Assembly (NCBI GenBank): GCA_944368805.1
Contig: CALVXC010000002.1
Coordinates: 5,153-69,152 of the forward strand
DNA length: 64,000 nt
Direction: 5' to 3'
From: an uncultured Bacilli bacterium
GTDB lineage: Bacteria; Bacillota_I; Bacilli_A; RF39; UBA660
A model generated the notes under the pieces. That model saw nothing but the letters and a program-made list of their open reading frames with translations, did not search any database and had not been told where the DNA came from. Shown in pieces: positions 48,795-63,006 of the stretch. Positions within the stretch are counted from its first letter, which is position 1, and every line of letters begins with the position of its first letter. The position numbers were made by a program, and so were the translations under genes.

Positions 48795-48822
48795 AAGGTC
48801 AAATGACCTTTTTTTGCTGTTT
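48795..48822 (+). terminator. Rho-independent terminator between sigF and spoVAC
   Basis: aaggtcaaatgacctttttttg. Confidence 0.65.
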
Positions 48823-48868
48823 AGGTATATTTGCTAAAATTATTTTCATAATAATTTTAGGTGATATT

Positions 48869-49315
48869 ATGGATAAGAAAGATTATCAAAAGTTAGTTGA
48901 TAAAAATACTCCTAAAGAAAAACGTTTAAAAAATGGAATCGTTGCTTTTTTTATTGGAGGATTTATGGGGATTATTGGTCAAGGGTTAATTGATTTATAT
49001 ATGAATTGGTTTGATATTTCTAGTAAACAAGCTTCCGTTTTTATGATTGTAACACTAATTTTTGTTGGTTGTTTTTTAACTTGTTTAGGTTTTTTTGATA
49101 AATGGGTTAATTTTGCAAGATGTGGTTTAATTGTTCCGATAACTGGTTTTGCTCATGCTATGATGAGTGCAGCTTTGGAATATAAAAAAGAAGGTATGGT
49201 TACAGGAATTGGGGCGAATATGTTTAAATTAGCTGGTAGTGTTATTATTTTTGGTGTCGTCAGTGCTTATACTTTTGGTCTTATTAGATTATTGATTTTA
49301 GGAGGTAGTGTATGA
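48869..49315 (+). CDS. spoVAC: Stage V sporulation protein AC
   Basis: Four-TM protein with the GLIVPITGFAHAM motif. Confidence 0.8.
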   Translation: MDKKDYQKLVDKNTPKEKRLKNGIVAFFIGGFMGIIGQGLIDLYMNWFDISSKQASVFMIVTLIFVGCFLTCLGFFDKWVNFARCGLIVPITGFAHAMMSAALEYKKEGMVTGIGANMFKLAGSVIIFGVVSAYTFGLIRLLILGGSV

Positions 49316-50301
49316 CTTTTAAATATAATAATGTATATTTAGAAAATACTTCCACGGTAACGGGACCTTATGAAAAAAATGGACCATTAGGTAATTTTTT
49401 TGATAAAAGTTATGATGATTTATATTGTGGTAATAAAACTTGGGAATATGCCGAAGTTCAGCTGATTTTAGATAGTATTGATTTGGTTTTGAAAAAGCAA
49501 AATAAAACTAAAAATGATATCGATTTACATATTAGTGGAGATTTGTTAAATCAAACAGTTGCTTCTAATTATGCTTCAGCTCAAATAAAAAGACCTTTTT
49601 TAGGTGTTTATAGTGCTTGTGCTTCTAGTGTTGAAACTTTAATTATTGGTGCTAATATGATTGAAAGTAATCAGATTAAAAATTGTTTATGTACAACTTC
49701 ATCACATAATAATAGTGCTGAAAAACAATTTCGTTATCCGGTTGAATATGGAGGACCTAAACCAATTACGACAACTTTTACAACAACTGGAGGAGTGGCT
49801 GCTTATTTAGGTAGAGAAAAAAAGGGTGTTAGAATTGAAAGTGCTACTATTGGTATTGTAAACGATTATGGAATTAAAGATGTTTTTCATATGGGAGCAG
49901 TTATGGCTCCAGCCGCTGCTGATACAATTTATCGTCATTTAAAAGATTTAAAAAGAGATATTAATTATTATGATATGATTTTAACTGGTGATTTGGGTAT
50001 TTATGGCAAAGATATTTTAAAAGATTTTATGAAAGAAGAATATAATATTGAGTTAAATAATCATGATGATGCAGCTTGTATGATTTTCAATCGAGATAAA
50101 CAACCAGTTTTAGCAGGAGGCAGTGGACCTGCTTGTGCGCCTTTAGTAACTTATAGTTATATTTTTGAAAAAATGAAAGAAAAACAAATATCGAAAGTTT
50201 TATTAGTAGCAACCGGTGCTTTAATGAATCCTTCGATGACAAATGAAAAAGAAGCAATTCCAAGTATTGCTCATGCAATTAGTTTGGAGGCGATAAAATG
50301 A
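49312..50301 (+). CDS. spoVAD: Stage V sporulation protein AD
   Basis: Thiolase/FabH-like fold protein in the spoVA position. Confidence 0.8.
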   Translation: MTFKYNNVYLENTSTVTGPYEKNGPLGNFFDKSYDDLYCGNKTWEYAEVQLILDSIDLVLKKQNKTKNDIDLHISGDLLNQTVASNYASAQIKRPFLGVYSACASSVETLIIGANMIESNQIKNCLCTTSSHNNSAEKQFRYPVEYGGPKPITTTFTTTGGVAAYLGREKKGVRIESATIGIVNDYGIKDVFHMGAVMAPAAADTIYRHLKDLKRDINYYDMILTGDLGIYGKDILKDFMKEEYNIELNNHDDAACMIFNRDKQPVLAGGSGPACAPLVTYSYIFEKMKEKQISKVLLVATGALMNPSMTNEKEAIPSIAHAISLEAIK

Positions 50302-50648
50302 TTTATTTATATGCTTTTCTTTTTGCAGGTTTGGTTTGTTTAATCGGTCAAATTATTTTAGATAATACGAAGTTAACACCAGGACATATTACAACTATTT
50401 TTGTTGTTTTAGGAACTTTATTAGACGTTTTTGATATATATGATAAATTTGTTTTATTTGCCGGTGGTGGTGCGTTAGTTCCTATTACTAGTTTTGGTCA
50501 TTTGTTAATTCATGGAGCAATGGATACTGCTAGTCAAGAAGGTTTTATGGGGTTAGTTATGGGAATGTTTGATTTAACGGCTTCTGGAATTACGTCAGCT
50601 ATTATTTTTTCTTTCTTTTTAGCGCTTATTTTTAAACCAAAAGATTAA
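50298..50648 (+). CDS. spoVAEB: Stage V sporulation protein AEb
   Basis: GGGALVPITSFGH motif, paralog of SpoVAC. Confidence 0.75.
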   Translation: MIYLYAFLFAGLVCLIGQIILDNTKLTPGHITTIFVVLGTLLDVFDIYDKFVLFAGGGALVPITSFGHLLIHGAMDTASQEGFMGLVMGMFDLTASGITSAIIFSFFLALIFKPKD

Positions 50649-50690
50649 AGCTATATGAAATTATTTTGTTTCATTATAGCTTTTTTCAAG
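50645..50690. terminator. Bidirectional terminator (spoVAEb / degV convergent)
   Basis: aaagctatatgaaattattttgtttcattatagcttttttc. Confidence 0.55.
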
Positions 50691-51602
50691 TTTTTTAACA
50701 TAACTAATACCACATAAATTTTCTGAACCATATGCTGCAACGACGCCACTAATATCTTGACGAATAAGGTGTTTGAAATTGGTTTTTTCTTGCAAATAAT
50801 TTTTAGCTTTTTCCATAGAACTTTCTTCTGAAGCAATCGTACCATAAACGATAAATTGTTGATCAGCTTGATTAAGTTTTTCAATATTTTGTTTTATTAA
50901 ATTTAAAATAGCCAATTGTTCTTGTTTACCTCTATAACATTTAACAATATGTAACTGACCATCGACAACATCAACTTGTGGTTGTAGTTTTAATTTGTTA
51001 ATAGCTTTACTAGCAAATTTAGTAGCAATATTCATAAGATGACTGTTAGTTGTTTTGTTTCGACCACTTCTAATAAAACCAGTTACATCAGGTACGATAA
51101 AAGATGTTTGAATTCGAGGAATAAAATTATGAATAATTTTATCATAAATTTCATTAGCCGAATAGCCATCTTTAATTAATTGTTCAATTAAAGTAACAAT
51201 TAATTTGCCAGTTGTTGCACCAGCTTTGGAATCAATTACGTAAATATGTTTACCATATTTTTGATTTAATAAATTAGCTTCTGTGTAAGCATTATTAAGT
51301 GAAGAACTAGAAATACTTTCACCCATGCTTACATGAAAAACAGTATCTGATATTTCTAAAGCTTCAGTAAATGTTTTTTCATAAGAGGAAAGATAAGGAC
51401 TTGCTGTTTTGAAAATTTCTCCTTGATTATTACGATTTGTAATTTCTTTAGGTGTTATATCAATTAAATCGAGATATTCTTGATCATTTTCATCAATAAT
51501 TAAAGCTGGAATTGTTTTAATAGGAATTTCTTTAGGGTCAGTCAAAATATTTTGTCCAGGTATACAGCCACTATCAGCTGTGATAATATAATTTTTTTTC
51601 AT
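50661..51602 (-). CDS. DegV family fatty-acid-binding protein
   Basis: DegV length and pattern (IITDSGCIPGQ...). Confidence 0.75.
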   Translation of the reverse strand: MKKNYIITADSGCIPGQNILTDPKEIPIKTIPALIIDENDQEYLDLIDITPKEITNRNNQGEIFKTASPYLSSYEKTFTEALEISDTVFHVSMGESISSSSLNNAYTEANLLNQKYGKHIYVIDSKAGATTGKLIVTLIEQLIKDGYSANEIYDKIIHNFIPRIQTSFIVPDVTGFIRSGRNKTTNSHLMNIATKFASKAINKLKLQPQVDVVDGQLHIVKCYRGKQEQLAILNLIKQNIEKLNQADQQFIVYGTIASEESSMEKAKNYLQEKTNFKHLIRQDISGVVAAYGSENLCGISYVKKLEKSYNETK

Positions 51603-51936
51603 GTTTTGCTCCTTACTAATTTTTTTTATTATAGCATGTGTAAATTTAGATGTAAATTAATCATAGACAATAATGGTTTATTTTGTTGTAGGTTTGTCAA
51701 ACAAAAGAGATAAAGTCACAACAAACTAGCGAAGGATTATTTTAAATTGTTAAAATAATCACGAAGCAATTCATCAGGTGATTTCCAATTTAAGGGTTGC
51801 ATAGGGAATTTGTTATATATGATAATAGTGATTCTAAAGAAGTTTAAGTATATTTTAAATTTAAAGAATTCGAATATATTGTAAGAAATTTGAAGTGGTT
51901 TTGTCCTACGGGTTATAACAAAAATAAAGGCAACCC

Positions 51937-51985
51937 TATATTTTTTATAGTTTTAAAAGGGCAAAGGGGTTGCCATTTTGTTACT
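51937..51985 (-). terminator. Rho-independent terminator for the - strand RiPP-like operon
   Basis: - strand: GGCAACCCC-loop-GGGTTGCC then TTTATTTTTGTT. Confidence 0.55.
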
Positions 51986-52230
51986 CTCAAAACTATATTC
52001 AAATTTTCCCATTATAATAAGGGCTTTTGGAAGATTTGATTTGTAGTTTTTTTTGTTAAATTTAGAAAAATTATGAAAAGACACAAAAAAAATTGCAACT
52101 TTTTGGAGATTATTTTCTCATTACAACACTCAAAATTAGGACTTTTAGGTATCTAAAAATTGAAGGTTATTATGGAAAAAGTAATTAACTATTGATAATA
52201 CATTTTTATTTGCATAGATTTATTTCACAT

Positions 52231-52701
52231 TCAAATAATGTTTGCCCATTTTTTTAATTTTTCTAATGATATTTGATAAATAGTATTACCTATAAATTTA
52301 AAACCTATATGTTTAAATACCTTTTGAGATAATTCATTATTACTATTTATATGTATTGTTACTATATCATAAGATTGAATATTGTTTATTGCAGTAAATT
52401 CTTTTATTAAATTTTTAAGTATTCTATTATTAATATATTCTTTTTTTATTTGGCATTCTGATATCCATAATTGTTTATTATTTATGGAATATGATAAAAA
52501 ACCTATTATTTTATTTTCTTTTTTATAAGCTAGTATATGATAATTTTTATTATTTTTAATCATAGTACTCCATTTTATAAATTTTTCATCATTATAGTAA
52601 TCATCTTTATGAAAAGTTGGATATGTTTTTAATAAGTTTTCAATTAAGATGTTATACATTTCTTTTAAGTTGTTATTAGTTTTTTTTATTTTTGCTATCA
52701 T
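52231..52701 (-). CDS. GNAT N-acetyltransferase
   Basis: GNAT fold pattern; 5 nt downstream of the rSAM gene. Confidence 0.6.
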   Translation of the reverse strand: MIAKIKKTNNNLKEMYNILIENLLKTYPTFHKDDYYNDEKFIKWSTMIKNNKNYHILAYKKENKIIGFLSYSINNKQLWISECQIKKEYINNRILKNLIKEFTAINNIQSYDIVTIHINSNNELSQKVFKHIGFKFIGNTIYQISLEKLKKWANII

Positions 52702-52706
52702 TTTTA

Positions 52707-53951
52707 TTATTTAAACTCCTTTATCAACTTATCAGCTAATTCACAATAAAAATTTGGTACATTGGTTAAACTTCCTGTTTCCATATAAAACTTTCCTGGA
52801 CAATATCTACATAATGATTTTTTATTACAATTCATACACTTATTATCGGATCTATATATATATTTTTCAGGTATTTTTTCAAATTTGTTACAAGCATCTT
52901 CTATAGATATTTCCTTTAAATTATATTTAAAAGGTACTACTAAACATGGCCTAATATCTAAGTTCGAGCTTATATAAATTCTACCTGAATTTATACTACA
53001 TTGGAATACGTGATTGTCTATAGTATTCTTTATGTTTATATTTTTTATTTTTTCTTTGAAAAAAGTTGTACTATCATTATCTTCTTTTAATACTTTTATA
53101 ATTTCATCAGGTGTACATCTTTGCATGTTTTGACATATATTATCTTGATTAGGAAAAATTATATAATCATATCTAAATGGTAAATTTTTTTCTTTGGCAT
53201 AAGATTTTAATTTATATAGATAATTTTTGTTTTTCTTTGTTAAAACAGTTTTTAAGTTCAAATTTATACTATAGTCAATTAGTTTATCTATATTATTATT
53301 TATAATATTAAAAGCTCGTTTTGTATGTGTAAAATTATAATAACTTTTATTATCATAACCATAGATACTTAGTTCAATATTTCTAGGTTTATATTCAATA
53401 AATAAATTTAATAGCATTTCATTAAGAAGATATCCATTTGTATTTATAGTAACAAGAAAACCATTTTTTTTGGCTGAGAGATAAATATCAACAAAACTGT
53501 TATGTAAAAAAGGTTCTCCTCCCGTTATTAGAATTTCATTATAATCTAATTTAATTAATTGATTTATTAAATTTTGAAAATTTTCTAAATTTAATATTTC
53601 TTTTTTGTTTGATACAAAACAATGATCACATTTAAATGGACATGTATTAATTATTTCAATTGTTGCATTTTTAATACTATATATATTATTACTTATGATC
53701 TTTTTTTCAATATTATTTGGTGTAATTTTTAAATCATTTAATTGATTTATAAAATTATTATAATCATTTTCTATTATATCTTTAGAAATATTTTTGTATT
53801 TGTTTTTTAATAATTTTAATGTTAAATTTTTATTATTAATATTATCGATAATGATTTTTGAAACATCTGAAAATTCATATATTTCTTCTGCTTCTTTGAT
53901 ATTAATGACAATCGTCTTATCAATATATTGTCTAATTACATAATCTTTCAT
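52707..53951 (-). CDS. Radical SAM / SPASM-domain peptide-modifying enzyme with N-terminal RRE-like extension
   Basis: CPFKCDHC (Cx3Cx2C). C-terminal Cys cluster CMNCNKKSLCRYCPGK...NFYCE is typical of the SPASM auxiliary cluster. About 95 aa lie upstream of the radical SAM core. Confidence 0.75.
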   Translation of the reverse strand: MKDYVIRQYIDKTIVINIKEAEEIYEFSDVSKIIIDNINNKNLTLKLLKNKYKNISKDIIENDYNNFINQLNDLKITPNNIEKKIISNNIYSIKNATIEIINTCPFKCDHCFVSNKKEILNLENFQNLINQLIKLDYNEILITGGEPFLHNSFVDIYLSAKKNGFLVTINTNGYLLNEMLLNLFIEYKPRNIELSIYGYDNKSYYNFTHTKRAFNIINNNIDKLIDYSINLNLKTVLTKKNKNYLYKLKSYAKEKNLPFRYDYIIFPNQDNICQNMQRCTPDEIIKVLKEDNDSTTFFKEKIKNINIKNTIDNHVFQCSINSGRIYISSNLDIRPCLVVPFKYNLKEISIEDACNKFEKIPEKYIYRSDNKCMNCNKKSLCRYCPGKFYMETGSLTNVPNFYCELADKLIKEFK

Positions 53952-54004
53952 TTTAATTTTCCTCTTTTATAAAATAATAAGGCTTTTTATAAAAGCCTTA
54001 TTAT

Positions 54005-54208
54005 TTAACATCCATCTCCATCATTAGCAGAGTAGCTTTGTTCCCAACATCCCATAACGATTTTGTGATTGTTGTTTTTCTTCACCAACTTTTTAATTTT
54101 TGGAGATTGATATTGATTGTCTTTAATTTTAGTATTATAATCTGGTTCTTTTAAGGCTAAATTTCCGTCAATAGTCTTAATTGATGTAAAAGTCTTAATT
54201 TTCATCAT
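54005..54208 (-). CDS. Candidate RiPP precursor peptide (~67 aa; core ...KIVMGCWEQSYSANDGDGC)
   Basis: The ATG-ATG pair has its own AAGGAGG RBS and a TTGACA-16-TATAAT promoter embedded in the longer predicted ORF. Lys-rich leader with two Cys at the extreme C-terminus. Sits directly upstream of the rSAM/SPASM gene. Confidence 0.55.
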   Translation of the reverse strand: MMKIKTFTSIKTIDGNLALKEPDYNTKIKDNQYQSPKIKKLVKKNNNHKIVMGCWEQSYSANDGDGC

Positions 54209-54224
54209 ATACCTCCTTGGGTTT

Positions 54225-54252
54225 ATTATAACATTTATAATATAAATGTCAA
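54225..54252 (-). promoter_or_regulatory. SigA promoter for the precursor/rSAM/GNAT operon
   Basis: - strand TTGACA, 16 nt, TATAAT, then AAGGAGG. Confidence 0.6.
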
Positions 54253-54374
54253 GTTCGAATTTAATCATGTAAAATGGTTTATTGTGCGTTTATACCTTTT
54301 TTGTTCTACTTCTATTATAAACGAACATTGTAGACAATAATGGTTTATTTTGTTATATTATTATTGGTGATAAA

Positions 54375-54887
54375 ATGAGTTTATTTATACTTGCTCAATG
54401 TTTTGGTGTTCTAGCTTTAGTTAGTTGGATTTTTAGTGTTTTACAAACTAAACGTTTTAAAATTTTAAAATTTCAAAATTTTGCGAATATGTTTTATGCA
54501 ACTCAATATATATTGTTAGGTGCATATCCAGCTGCTTGTATGAATTTGATTTCAATGTTAAGAGGAATAATGTTTAATAGTTTTGATAAGAAAAAACAAG
54601 AAATTAGTTTTAAAATTTTAATTTTATTTTTACTTGTGATTATAGCTATCGGTTTTGCCACTTTTCAAAACATTTATAGTTTAATTCCAATTATTATTAC
54701 ATCATTATATAGTTATTCAGTTTGGCAAAAGAACTTAACTGTTTTTCGAATAATTTTCGTAATTGCAGCCAGTGGTTGGTTTATTTATAATTTTTTAGTT
54801 GGTGCTTATGTATCTTTAATAGGAAATGGTTTAGAACTCATTTTTGGCATTAGTGCTATAATTAAACATGATTTTATGAAGAAGTAG
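54375..54887 (+). CDS. Hypothetical small polytopic membrane protein
   Basis: 170 aa, 5-6 TM segments. Confidence 0.4.
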   Translation: MSLFILAQCFGVLALVSWIFSVLQTKRFKILKFQNFANMFYATQYILLGAYPAACMNLISMLRGIMFNSFDKKKQEISFKILILFLLVIIAIGFATFQNIYSLIPIIITSLYSYSVWQKNLTVFRIIFVIAASGWFIYNFLVGAYVSLIGNGLELIFGISAIIKHDFMKK

Positions 54888-61176: not shown

Positions 61177-61203
61177 AAACGTTAGATTAATTTCTAACGT
61201 TTA
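61177..61203 (-). terminator. Terminator after glmS
   Basis: aaacgttagaaattaatctaacgttt hairpin. Confidence 0.5.
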
Positions 61204-63006
61204 TTCAACAGTAACCGATTTAGCTAAATTTCTAGGTTTATCAATATCGCATCCTCTTAATAAAGCAACTTCATAAGCTATTACTTGAAGTGGGATAATT
61301 GAAAGTAAAGGTTGCGTAAATGGATTTACACTAGGAATGACAATTTTTTCATCATAATAATCTGATTCTGTATTTAAGTTTTCAGAAATAATTAAAATAA
61401 CTTTCGCACCTCTAGCTTTGACTTCTTTAATATTACTAATAGTTTTACTAGCTAATTTTTCATCAGTAACAATAGCTATAACCGGAGTATCTTTTTCGAT
61501 TAAAGAAATAGAACCATGTTTTAATTCTCCAGCTGCATAAGATTCACAGTGGATATAAGAAATTTCTTTTAATTTCAAAGCTCCTTCTTTAGCAATTGCT
61601 TCATCAATACCACGTCCAATAAAGAAGATATGTTCTTTTTTATATATTTTTTTAGCTATTTTTTTATAATCTTGATTGATTAAATCTTTTATTAAACTAG
61701 GTAATTTTTTCATTTCATCGAAAATTTTACTAACTAAAACATTATCTAGTTTCTTTTTATTAATTGCAATATTTAAAGCAATTAATGATAATAATGTTGA
61801 CTGCGCTAAATAAGCTTTAGTAGTAGCAACAGCTATTTCACATCCAGCTTTAATATATAATGTTTTATCAGCTTCTCTAGCAATTGAGCTACCAACAACA
61901 TTGATAATGGCAAGTGAATCAATACCTTGTTCTTTGACTTTTCTTAAACAAGCTAAGGTATCGGCTGTTTCACCAGATTGGGAAATAAAAATAACTAAAG
62001 TTTTGGCGTTATAAAAAACTTTTTTATAGCGATATTCACTAGCAATTTCAACTGAAACAGGAATTTCACCAAATTCTTCAATTAAAGCTTTGCCGACTAA
62101 ACCAGTATGATAAGCACTACCACATGCAACAATATGAATTTGTTCATATTTACTTAAATCAGGTATTTCTTTTCGTAAACTTTGTTTACCATCTTTGATA
62201 CAAGGTGCGATTGTATCTTCGATAACAAAAGGTTGTTCATTTATTTCTTTTAACATAAAATGATCGTAACCATTTTTCATAGCGTTTTCTAAATCTAAAT
62301 CAAAAGTTTGAAGTTCTTTTTTGACTTCTTTTAAATCGTGATTGTAAATAGTTAAATTATCTTTACTGATTTTACCAATTTCGTTATTTTCAATTAAGTA
62401 ATATTTATTGGTATATTTTAAAATAGCTGGAACATCAGAAGCTATAAAATAACCATCAGTTGATTTAGCAATAATTAAAGGACTATCTTTTTTTAAACAA
62501 TATAAATGATTAGGATCATCGGTACAAATAATTCCCATTGCATAAGATCCTTCAAAAATGTCTTGACATTTACTTAAAGCTTTTAAAATATCTTTTTCTT
62601 GATTATACATTTTATCAATTAAAGCAGTAGCAATTTCGGTATCGGTTTCAGAATAAAATTTATAACCGTCTTTTATAAGTTTTTGTTTTAATTTTTCATA
62701 ATTTTCAATAATTCCATTATGAACTAAAGCTATTTTTCCTTGCATATGAGGATGCGCATTATTTTCGCTAGGGGCACCATGAGTTGCCCATCTTGTATGA
62801 CCAATTCCTAAATTAGATTTTTGTTTATAATTAACACATTTATCTAAATTTTCTAATTTTCCTTGCTTTTTTAATATATTTATTTTATCTGTCATATAGG
62901 CAATACCAGCTGAATCATAACCACGGTATTCTAAAGATTTTAAACCATTGATTAGAAATTCTAAAGTATTATCGTTTTTTCCTATATAACCTACAATTCC
63001 ACACAT
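61201..63006 (-). CDS. glmS: Glutamine--fructose-6-phosphate aminotransferase
   Basis: MCGIVGY N-terminal nucleophile, two SIS domains. Confidence 0.95.
   Translation of the reverse strand: MCGIVGYIGKNDNTLEFLINGLKSLEYRGYDSAGIAYMTDKINILKKQGKLENLDKCVNYKQKSNLGIGHTRWATHGAPSENNAHPHMQGKIALVHNGIIENYEKLKQKLIKDGYKFYSETDTEIATALIDKMYNQEKDILKALSKCQDIFEGSYAMGIICTDDPNHLYCLKKDSPLIIAKSTDGYFIASDVPAILKYTNKYYLIENNEIGKISKDNLTIYNHDLKEVKKELQTFDLDLENAMKNGYDHFMLKEINEQPFVIEDTIAPCIKDGKQSLRKEIPDLSKYEQIHIVACGSAYHTGLVGKALIEEFGEIPVSVEIASEYRYKKVFYNAKTLVIFISQSGETADTLACLRKVKEQGIDSLAIINVVGSSIAREADKTLYIKAGCEIAVATTKAYLAQSTLLSLIALNIAINKKKLDNVLVSKIFDEMKKLPSLIKDLINQDYKKIAKKIYKKEHIFFIGRGIDEAIAKEGALKLKEISYIHCESYAAGELKHGSISLIEKDTPVIAIVTDEKLASKTISNIKEVKARGAKVILIISENLNTESDYYDEKIVIPSVNPFTQPLLSIIPLQVIAYEVALLRGCDIDKPRNLAKSVTVE

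Follow-up and report, generated by a model that had tools for sequence, protein, structure and literature searches.

In a 64,000-nucleotide stretch of DNA from an uncultured Bacilli bacterium (GenBank assembly GCA_944368805.1, contig CALVXC010000002.1, positions 5,153 to 69,152; hereafter the window), we analysed a compact three-gene operon on the minus strand. Its genes encode a precursor peptide (54005–54208; 67 amino acids (aa), or 66 aa from a second ATG), a 414-aa radical S-adenosylmethionine (SAM)/SPASM maturase (52707–53951) and a GNAT acetyltransferase (52231–52701; 156 aa), which is a separate gene here. The maturase gene starts 53 nt past the peptide stop codon and the GNAT gene 5 nt past the maturase stop codon. 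These coordinates, together with the length of the maturase and its CX3CX2C motif, agree with a preliminary description of this DNA, which had read the locus as an operon for a peptide that is synthesized ribosomally and then modified post-translationally (RiPP). That reading is supported by the architecture of the enzyme, which joins a RiPP recognition element (RRE) to a SPASM region, by the conservation of the peptide and by fusion of the GNAT to the maturase in relatives. We regard a RiPP operon in the general sense as very probable. The best explanation overall, which we hold with moderate confidence, is a self-contained RiPP operon whose modules are an RRE, a radical SAM/SPASM domain and a GNAT.

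The peptide gene is preceded by a sigma-70-type promoter (54225–54252, minus strand), with TTGACA at 54252–54247, a 16-nt spacer carrying an extended TG, and TATAAT at 54230–54225. This promoter scores 12/12 and is the sole perfect match across 51900–54500; in most homologous loci, consensus-like promoters likewise lie directly 5′ of the peptide gene. A ribosome-binding site, AAGGAGG (54212–54218, minus strand), was read from the sequence and stands 3 nt from the ATG at 54208 and 6 nt from the ATG at 54205. Because the promoter falls within an 87-aa open reading frame (ORF) starting at 54268, the start of that longer ORF is not real. The preliminary description had already placed the promoter and AAGGAGG inside the longer ORF and proposed a ~67-aa peptide from an internal start. 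All of these elements lie on the minus strand where it put them, and the peptide is 67 or 66 aa long, depending on which of the two adjacent ATGs (54208 or 54205) is used. Gene callers picked the 66-aa form on identical metagenome contigs, and this form has the better spacing to the ribosome-binding site. The stop codon occupies 54005–54007, directly after a product ending in KIVMGCWEQSYSANDGDGC, and in the core peptide, GCWEQSYSANDGDGC (54008–54052, minus strand), the invariant C54 is followed by an aromatic (position 55) and, as the tail, by N62-x-x-D65-x-C67.

The association of peptide and enzymes extends well beyond the window. Searching with the radical SAM protein recovered ~46 family clusters, all from metagenomes or metagenome-assembled genomes (MAGs). 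When species-representative genomes were scanned, the family turned up in uncultured gut bacteria of the Bacilli, Erysipelotrichaceae, Clostridia and Christensenellales. A peptide with a matching core adjoins the enzyme in 20 of the 20 family loci that have enough flanking sequence, and a profile of the family peptides retrieved 45 further precursors, all unnamed. The arrangement of peptide and enzyme is more than chance: the small ORF that the preliminary description had proposed looking for beside the maturase in other genomes is conserved there, and the pairing recurs at every one of these 20 loci. In an all-against-all clustering of neighbouring ORFs from the family loci, only the peptide, the radical SAM protein and the GNAT were conserved; no transporter, protease or immunity gene conserved near the cassette emerged from it. 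No close homologue was found on plasmids or phages.

The three protein modules are joined in different ways across the family. The GNAT forms the C-terminal domain of ~19 of 41 complete radical SAM proteins, with fusions of 577–600 aa or 495–507 aa. Where the two are unfused, the GNAT gene lies immediately 3′ (six of six loci), separated by at most ~10 nt or overlapping. At two loci, L013 and L023, the RRE is itself a discrete 83–87-aa ORF between the peptide and radical SAM genes. The retention of RRE, radical SAM and GNAT modules through these varying covalent arrangements is strong evidence for action on one substrate, and the fusion of radical SAM and GNAT provides evidence of the ‘Rosetta stone’ kind that both enzymes share one peptide.

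The window maturase matches the Pfam Radical_SAM family (E 7.5e-17). Its CX3CX2C motif (C104, C108 and C111; CPFKCDHC; 53619–53642, minus strand), which binds the SAM-cleaving [4Fe-4S] cluster, is invariant in an alignment of 38 family members. Towards the C terminus, a SPASM-type auxiliary-cluster region (52743–53000, minus strand) holds C318, C336, C372, C375, C381, C384 and C403. All seven are invariant in the same alignment, in the order C-x12-G-x4-C, then CX2CX5CX2C, then a final C, and this SPASM pattern bears out the C-terminal Cys cluster first reported for this protein. Since seven Cys serve two [4Fe-4S] clusters, one coordination site is open. In CteB, the vacant site belongs to auxiliary cluster I and is occupied by a substrate Cys (PMC6231123), and by analogy the open site of the window enzyme may take a substrate Cys.

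The N-terminal part of the maturase (about residues 1–75; 53727–53951, minus strand) is an RRE with a PqqD-like winged helix-turn-helix. An AlphaFold2 (AF2) model of the whole protein (pLDDT 93.5, pTM 0.91) gave residues 4–73 a beta-beta-beta-alpha-alpha-alpha topology at pLDDT >90, with strands at 4–8, 12–17 and 24–28 and helices at 29–36, 41–51 and 57–73. Pfam searches over the 38 members detected Radical_SAM in 38, PqqD in 15 (best E 4.7e-6) and SPASM in 8; for the window protein itself, PqqD was weak (E 0.25) and Pfam SPASM went undetected. The comparison with SPASM and RRE models proposed in the preliminary description thus succeeded for part of the family and gave no more than the weak PqqD match for the window protein. 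Its suggestion that the N-terminal extension is a precursor-recognition element is borne out by the AF2 topology, the PqqD matches in 15 of 38 members and the discrete RRE ORF at two loci.

By fold, the enzyme resembles RiPP maturases. The top Foldseek matches were CteB, SuiB and SkfB, with anSME, PqqE and MoaA ranking lower; of these, CteB, SuiB and anSME are SPASM enzymes. The closest solved protein by sequence profile was SkfB (E 4e-23, 85 bits), compared with 54 bits for MoaA, 40 for anSME and 34 for PqqE. No model in NCBIfam (June 2026 release) reached its cutoff for the window protein: scores against cutoffs were 67/284 for MoaA, 65/500 for AhbD, 54/500 for NirJ2, 39/265 for MftC and 35/381 for PqqE, and a sulfatase maturase was not among the 25 NCBIfam matches listed. 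Assignment to an anaerobic sulfatase maturase or a cofactor-biosynthesis enzyme, which the preliminary description had named as one outcome that would speak against its reading, finds no family at cutoff, and we rejected anaerobic sulfatase maturase, MoaA, PqqE and MftC identities on score and architecture. A viperin identity was also rejected: the PADLOC pVip model covers only the generic radical SAM core (residues 99–243, 58 bits), and an RRE and a SPASM region are foreign to viperins.

The window peptide matched no Pfam or NCBIfam family, and its leader carries the motifs GNLALK and Y-Q-S-P-K-I-K-K-L. We assembled 56 family peptides with 40 unique cores; 42 of the 56 have a leader with Y-x-x-P-x-[I/V/L/A], and 45 have one with G-N-L-A-L-K. 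The first Cys of the core is preceded by G in 40 of 42 cores and followed by an aromatic residue in all 42 (W in 32, Y in 10). The terminal residue is always Cys, with N at −5 relative to it in 36 of 42 cores and D at −2 in 35 of 42, giving the consensus G-C-[W/Y]...N-x-x-D-x-C-stop. The span from Cys to Cys is 10–15 residues; a Lys or Arg is present in no more than 4 of the 40 cores. In the numbering of the window peptide, the only conserved core positions are G53, C54, aromatic 55 and N62-x-x-D65-x-C67; E56 and Y59 vary.

We then asked how selection has acted on this gene. In four further copies from metagenomes, the operon shows no more than 1 nt of difference (one radical SAM substitution, at L032). 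Because such within-species copies are near-identical and uninformative on selection, we relied on the ratio of nonsynonymous (dN) to synonymous (dS) substitution between species. Between L011 and L006, the core shows a dN of 0.025 versus a dS of 0.97 (dN/dS ~0.03) and the leader a dN of 0.285 versus a dS of 1.02 (dN/dS ~0.28), with a dN/dS of 0.22 for the whole gene. Such a pattern marks the gene as translated, with its core held under strong purifying selection.

Some members of the family depart from the usual form. At L009 (284–2304) the order is permuted, and the peptide, ending in RIVMGCWTENNTINNGDGC before its stop codon, lies 3′ of the GNAT gene rather than 5′ of the radical SAM gene. 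L021 (3600–4850; Clostridium sp. CAG:762, HF996832.1) holds a decayed cassette with the core MGCRQQRYVANDGDGC, in which W is changed to R; here the leader is frameshifted and the radical SAM gene has a large internal deletion, and the GNAT ORF is intact. At L010 (3500–3935; an Erysipelotrichaceae MAG) the precursor leader is frameshifted and intact versions (P0078) are present on other contigs, so this copy is a pseudogene or else the frameshift arose in assembly.

The GNAT matches Acetyltransf_10 (31.8 bits versus a cutoff of 23.6) and Acetyltransf_1 (29.1 versus 20.7) in Pfam. Its AF2 model (pLDDT 94.1) gave Foldseek TM-scores of ~0.7 to many GNATs, none standing out, and a search of PDB sequences with the GNAT returned nothing significant (best phmmer E 0.067). 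Given only generic fold matches and no close sequence relative in the PDB, the substrate of the GNAT is unreadable from homology. Invariant residues are W44, G67, E82, N122, S125, F129, G133 and Y142, with E82 on strand beta-4 and the block N122-x-x-S125-x-x-x-F129-x-x-x-G133 invariant. The invariant Glu and the N-x-x-S-x-x-x-F-x-x-x-G-F block mean that the sequence fits an active acyl-CoA enzyme. Whether the GNAT is a tailoring N-acetyltransferase acting on the peptide is, in our estimate, an evenly balanced question. Four family peptides have no Lys, three of them being complete short-leader sequences, and for this reason the only universal amine is the alpha-amine.

Taking these parts together, we propose the following order of events. 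The leader would dock on the RRE by way of two motifs, Y-x-x-P-x-[I/V] and GNLALK; the broader form of the first, Y-x-x-P-x-[I/V/L/A], is similar to the one that PqqD-type RREs bind in lasso peptide pathways. The radical SAM domain would cleave SAM, and the resulting 5′-deoxyadenosyl radical would take a hydrogen atom from a core residue. The C54 thiolate of G-C-W, which auxiliary cluster I may hold at its open site, would then close a thioether macrocycle on the N62/D65 tail, as a sactionine or a beta- or gamma-thioether, and C67 may make a second bridge or a disulfide. The GNAT would subsequently move an acetyl group from acetyl-CoA onto an amine of that same peptide, still bound to the enzyme; an alpha-amine is the simplest choice. 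Leader removal and export, if any, would be carried out by genes outside the cluster.

Thioether formation from C54 onto the N/D tail is a tentative assignment, for which we claim somewhat less than even confidence. The preliminary description had allowed that the core could support sactipeptide or ranthipeptide thioethers or Lys-Trp, Trp-Trp or Glu-Tyr crosslinks. This range can now be narrowed: since E56 and Y59 are variable and Lys and Arg are near-absent from cores, Glu-Tyr and Lys-Trp links are unlikely to define the family, and the thioether is retained. We favour a thioether macrocycle because SkfB is the closest solved sequence relative and SkfA, the SkfB substrate in Bacillus subtilis, has an MGCW donor motif. 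In SKF, the Cys of M-G-C-W gives its sulfur to the alpha-carbon of the residue 8 positions on (PMC8172795). N62 is likewise 8 positions past C54 in the window core, and thurincin H and RumC are documented cases in which Asn accepts a sactionine bond. The SkfA sequence that we used was validated against TIGR04404 (123.8 bits).

Several observations weigh against this combination of thioether formation and acetylation. The MGCW alignment to SkfA spans only 8 columns (hhalign probability 27%), the SkfB model scores only 30.3 bits versus 300, and a full SPASM region stands in place of the Twitch domain of SkfB. The Asn also lies at varying distances past the first Cys (+8 in 14-residue cores, +5 in 11-residue cores), and a few cores are without the conserved Asn. 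In the GNAT, the usual general-acid Tyr is a Phe (F129) and the pyrophosphate loop is degenerate; furthermore, the N terminus is the sole universal amine, yet fusion to the radical SAM protein suggests that the GNAT acts before leader removal. Both chemical steps are ones that we infer throughout, and a secreted antimicrobial role is not supported, given that no protease or transporter is linked to the cassette.

Comparison with known systems places the operon near several of them and within none. Like SkfA/SkfB, the Bacillus subtilis sactipeptide system, it has the order RRE, radical SAM and auxiliary cluster, along with the M-G-C-W motif. Unlike that system, the window enzyme falls below the TIGR04403 cutoff and carries seven SPASM Cys versus a Twitch domain in SkfB, and the SkfA model TIGR04404 gave no match for four family peptides (E≤10) or for the window peptide (E≤1). 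SkfC, SkfE, SkfF, SkfG, SkfH and head-to-tail cyclisation machinery are missing here, SKF has no GNAT, and the window core is short, acidic and Cys-ended. CteB, the SCIFF/thermocellin maturase, is the best fold match (E 1.7e-17), aligned over its full length including the RRE, and it shares the seven-Cys SPASM region; however, it was missing from the PDB matches obtained by sequence profile at E≤0.01. The SCIFF cassette, too, is a minimal pairing of peptide and maturase without a transporter. Unlike SCIFF and other ranthipeptides, the window-family cores have two Cys, no C-x3-D/E repeats and no six-Cys pattern, and those systems are without a GNAT; PapB was not among the 25 NCBIfam matches listed for the window enzyme.

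SuiB, of the streptide type, is the second-best fold match, and the window family has an invariant core aromatic. By contrast, WgkB scores 48 bits versus a cutoff of 650, SuiB and WgkB substrates have no counterpart to the two invariant Cys, and their Lys/Arg partners are missing from window-family cores. Other RiPP pathways also encode GNATs, namely GodH of goadsporin and MdnD of microviridin, and the lasso acetyltransferases extend this group; as here, a cluster-encoded GNAT is presumed to acylate the peptide. Unlike the window family, in which about half of the GNATs are fused to the radical SAM protein, these are stand-alone enzymes that act after leader removal or on the mature scaffold. 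For lasso peptides, acylation by GNATs has been described (bioRxiv 10.1101/2024.12.31.630886).

Competing explanations bear first on the chemistry. The radical SAM reaction could instead target aromatic 55, making a C-C cyclophane or a Cys-S-to-indole or -phenol crosslink (for example, C67 to W55). The W or Y found after the first Cys in 42 of 42 cores would suit such a reaction, as would the appearance of SuiB, a Lys-Trp crosslinker, among the best fold matches and of WgkB, at 48 bits, among the better RiPP-maturase matches to hidden Markov models (HMMs); many radical SAM/SPASM enzymes form cyclophanes. We nevertheless consider this unlikely: in SkfA, too, the donor Cys is followed by a W, which stays unmodified (PMC8172795), the known cyclophane partners Lys and Arg are almost missing from the cores, and the closest solved enzyme by sequence is a thioether former. 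The coupling of radical SAM and GNAT raises a different possibility, in which the GNAT, rather than acetylating an amine, presents acetyl-CoA to the radical SAM domain, the 5′-deoxyadenosyl radical takes a hydrogen atom from the acetyl methyl, the radical so formed adds to the peptide (for example, at W/Y55) and thioester hydrolysis leaves a carboxymethyl group (+58 Da). The model for this is Elp3, a fusion of radical SAM and KAT/GNAT domains that acts in tRNA wobble-uridine carboxymethylation and reportedly uses an acetyl-CoA radical route on U34 of tRNA. The domain order, radical SAM then GNAT, is as in Elp3; fusion or translational coupling of the two is the rule in the family; the general-acid Tyr of the GNAT is replaced by Phe; an electron-rich aromatic is invariant in the core; and the SPASM clusters could conceivably re-oxidise the adduct radical. 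Even so, a route of precisely this kind appears very unlikely. The Pfam families listed for the 38 members, which include 18 fusions, do not contain the Elp3-type Radical_SAM_C domain, no Elp3 structure ranked in the top 50 GNAT fold matches, the invariant Glu typical of amine-acetylating GNATs is retained, and an RRE/SPASM maturase has a complete catalytic logic without acetyl-CoA. Elp3 moreover has no specific sequence or domain similarity to the window proteins, possesses neither an RRE nor a SPASM region and acts on tRNA, so the resemblance is one of analogy only. The broader idea that acetyl-CoA joins the radical reaction at all, through carboxymethylation or acetyl-radical addition on Trp, Tyr or another core carbon, would by analogy define a new RiPP class, and we hold it to be improbable.

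Other explanations concern the role of the product and of the GNAT. Self-protection is one: within the producing cell, the GNAT might acetylate the mature product or a processed piece of it and so make it inactive, in the manner of MccE, whose C-terminal GNAT domain protects against microcin C and which exemplifies a biosynthetic domain fused to an immunity GNAT. MccE is indeed among the GNAT fold matches (rank 37–38), and the cluster has no other immunity gene or exporter. However, that match is no better than those of dozens of unrelated GNATs, nothing indicates a toxic product, and one-to-one fusion with the maturase better fits action on an enzyme-bound substrate; we give self-protection little weight. 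A modified peptide that stays inside the cell, with a redox, metal-binding, cofactor-like or signalling function, is a more serious candidate, possible though on balance doubtful, and is compatible with thioether chemistry. SCIFF peptides, mycofactocin and pyrroloquinoline quinone are all made by minimal cassettes of a peptide and a radical SAM enzyme. The lack of a conserved transporter, protease or immunity gene nearby makes an intracellular role, which has been proposed for SCIFF, as plausible as that of a bacteriocin. The cassette lies among unrelated housekeeping genes in each genome, the acidic core bracketed by two Cys could bind metal, and the hosts are uncultured gut Firmicutes represented by metagenome assemblies only. 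Against this, patchy occurrence and the decayed copies at L021 and L010 suggest an accessory trait, and a strong dedicated promoter with an attenuator is typical of bacteriocin-like precursors. Lastly, the small ORF could be fortuitous, and the substrate of the radical SAM protein and GNAT could be something other than a peptide. That the radical SAM protein has its best raw HMM scores to MoaA and AhbD, and that the peptide has no Pfam or NCBIfam family, would point that way, but those scores are 4–8 times below cutoffs and the enzyme has an RRE, which is a type of domain for binding peptide leaders. With the peptide present in 20 of 20 loci and a core dN/dS of ~0.03, this explanation is effectively refuted by conservation and keeps next to no probability.

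Expression of the precursor and of its enzymes may be set at different levels. A stem-loop with a 16-bp stem and a U-rich tail lies between the peptide and radical SAM genes (53968–54010, minus strand). It is the strongest RNA element that we found (dG −17.1 kcal/mol, z −4.5, 0 of 200 shuffles folding as well) and had gone unmentioned in the preliminary description. In 11 of the 11 loci that we folded, a stem-loop and U-run occur directly 3′ of the peptide stop codon, with differing sequences. The element is probably a leaky terminator or attenuator; a leaky terminator would let precursor transcript exceed enzyme transcript, as in many bacteriocin operons. At the other end of the operon, we found no convincing terminator immediately 3′ of the GNAT gene, and the terminator previously placed there is not supported. 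The candidate is a terminator-like hairpin with a U-run ~255 nt further on (51918–51975, minus strand; dG −17.9 kcal/mol, z −2.9, 0 of 200 shuffles folding as well), which is possibly the operon end. It lies between the GNAT and DegV genes and reads GGCAACCC...GGGTTGCC followed by UUUAUUUUUG; the 255-nt spacer between the GNAT gene and the hairpin contains no convincing ORF.

The family belongs to a much larger group of maturases. A profile search at E≤1e-30 returned 3,939 cluster representatives, and the best 150 matches listed were mostly radical SAM/SPASM proteins of 340–380 aa without a fused RRE. None of ten wider relatives scanned was at an NCBIfam cutoff. Among four that we inspected, three had a discrete PqqD gene adjoining, with Cys-containing peptides in two and different tailoring genes; the contig of the fourth was too short for neighbours. 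The group that is linked to a GNAT and has the GC[W/Y]...C-terminal core is one clade of this larger unnamed set. Distant radical SAM relatives at L033 (2710–6223), L030 (202–3461) and L035 (79–3481) score 250–330 bits to the family profile and each have a discrete PqqD gene. Their partners differ, being a methyltransferase/ScmC-like protein, a second radical SAM protein with an S24 peptidase, or an HprK-like protein with a nucleotidyltransferase, and no curated family matches any of these relatives. The adjacent peptides at L033 and L030 share a Y-x-K-P-x-[I/V]-K leader motif, as in MKKKYSKPEIKSVKLKPQEAVLSGCKFDGATGVGAPTDCKYHGNKCSSVGT.

A precursor with an RRE-bearing radical SAM/SPASM maturase is a well-known general type. 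Scans of all three proteins against NCBIfam, Pfam and PADLOC gave no equivalog for the peptide or the radical SAM protein, and NCBIfam offers no curated model for the peptide family, the enzyme clade or the obligatory or fused GNAT. The literature that we searched, which included the atlas of radical SAM RiPPs and a human-microbiome survey of RaS-RiPPs and did not extend to subscription-only papers, contained no description of the family or of a RiPP pairing of radical SAM and GNAT. Peptides of gut bacteria that are modified by radical SAM enzymes, among them ruminococcin C, streptide and enteropeptins, have proved to be antibiotics and signals. The cassette is a compact, easily cloned three-part family of ~2 kb with a sharply conserved Cys-to-Cys core of 10–15 residues. 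A product structure would add new tailoring logic or a new crosslink type, and it would give a first function to the larger unnamed clade of maturases with PqqD-type RREs that shares Y-x-K-P-x-[I/V]-K. Interest would be high only if the coupling of radical SAM and GNAT does encode new chemistry. Because all knowledge of the hosts comes from metagenome assemblies of the gut, heterologous expression is the sole practical route to the compound.

The operon block (52001–54000) is the most AT-rich 2 kb of the window, with a GC content of 0.193 versus 0.21–0.31 elsewhere, which might stem from horizontal acquisition. On the 3′ side of the operon lie SpoVAC, SpoVAD and SpoVAEb-like genes (48803–50648, plus strand) and a DegV gene (50661–51602, minus strand); given the flanking SpoVA-type genes, the host is probably a spore-forming Firmicute. 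This SpoVA/DegV synteny is kept in all four metagenome copies shown, and 46 indexed blocks of the collection contain the identical GNAT. On the other side, divergent from the peptide promoter, a gene at 54375–54887 (plus strand) encodes a YgjV-like membrane protein (PF10688); because it is not conserved beside homologous clusters, it is probably unrelated. Farther away, a glmS ribozyme/riboswitch (RF00234; 63027–63174, minus strand; 70.8 bits, E 2.9e-14) lies 5′ of a 601-aa ORF (61201–63006, minus strand) that presumably encodes GlmS.

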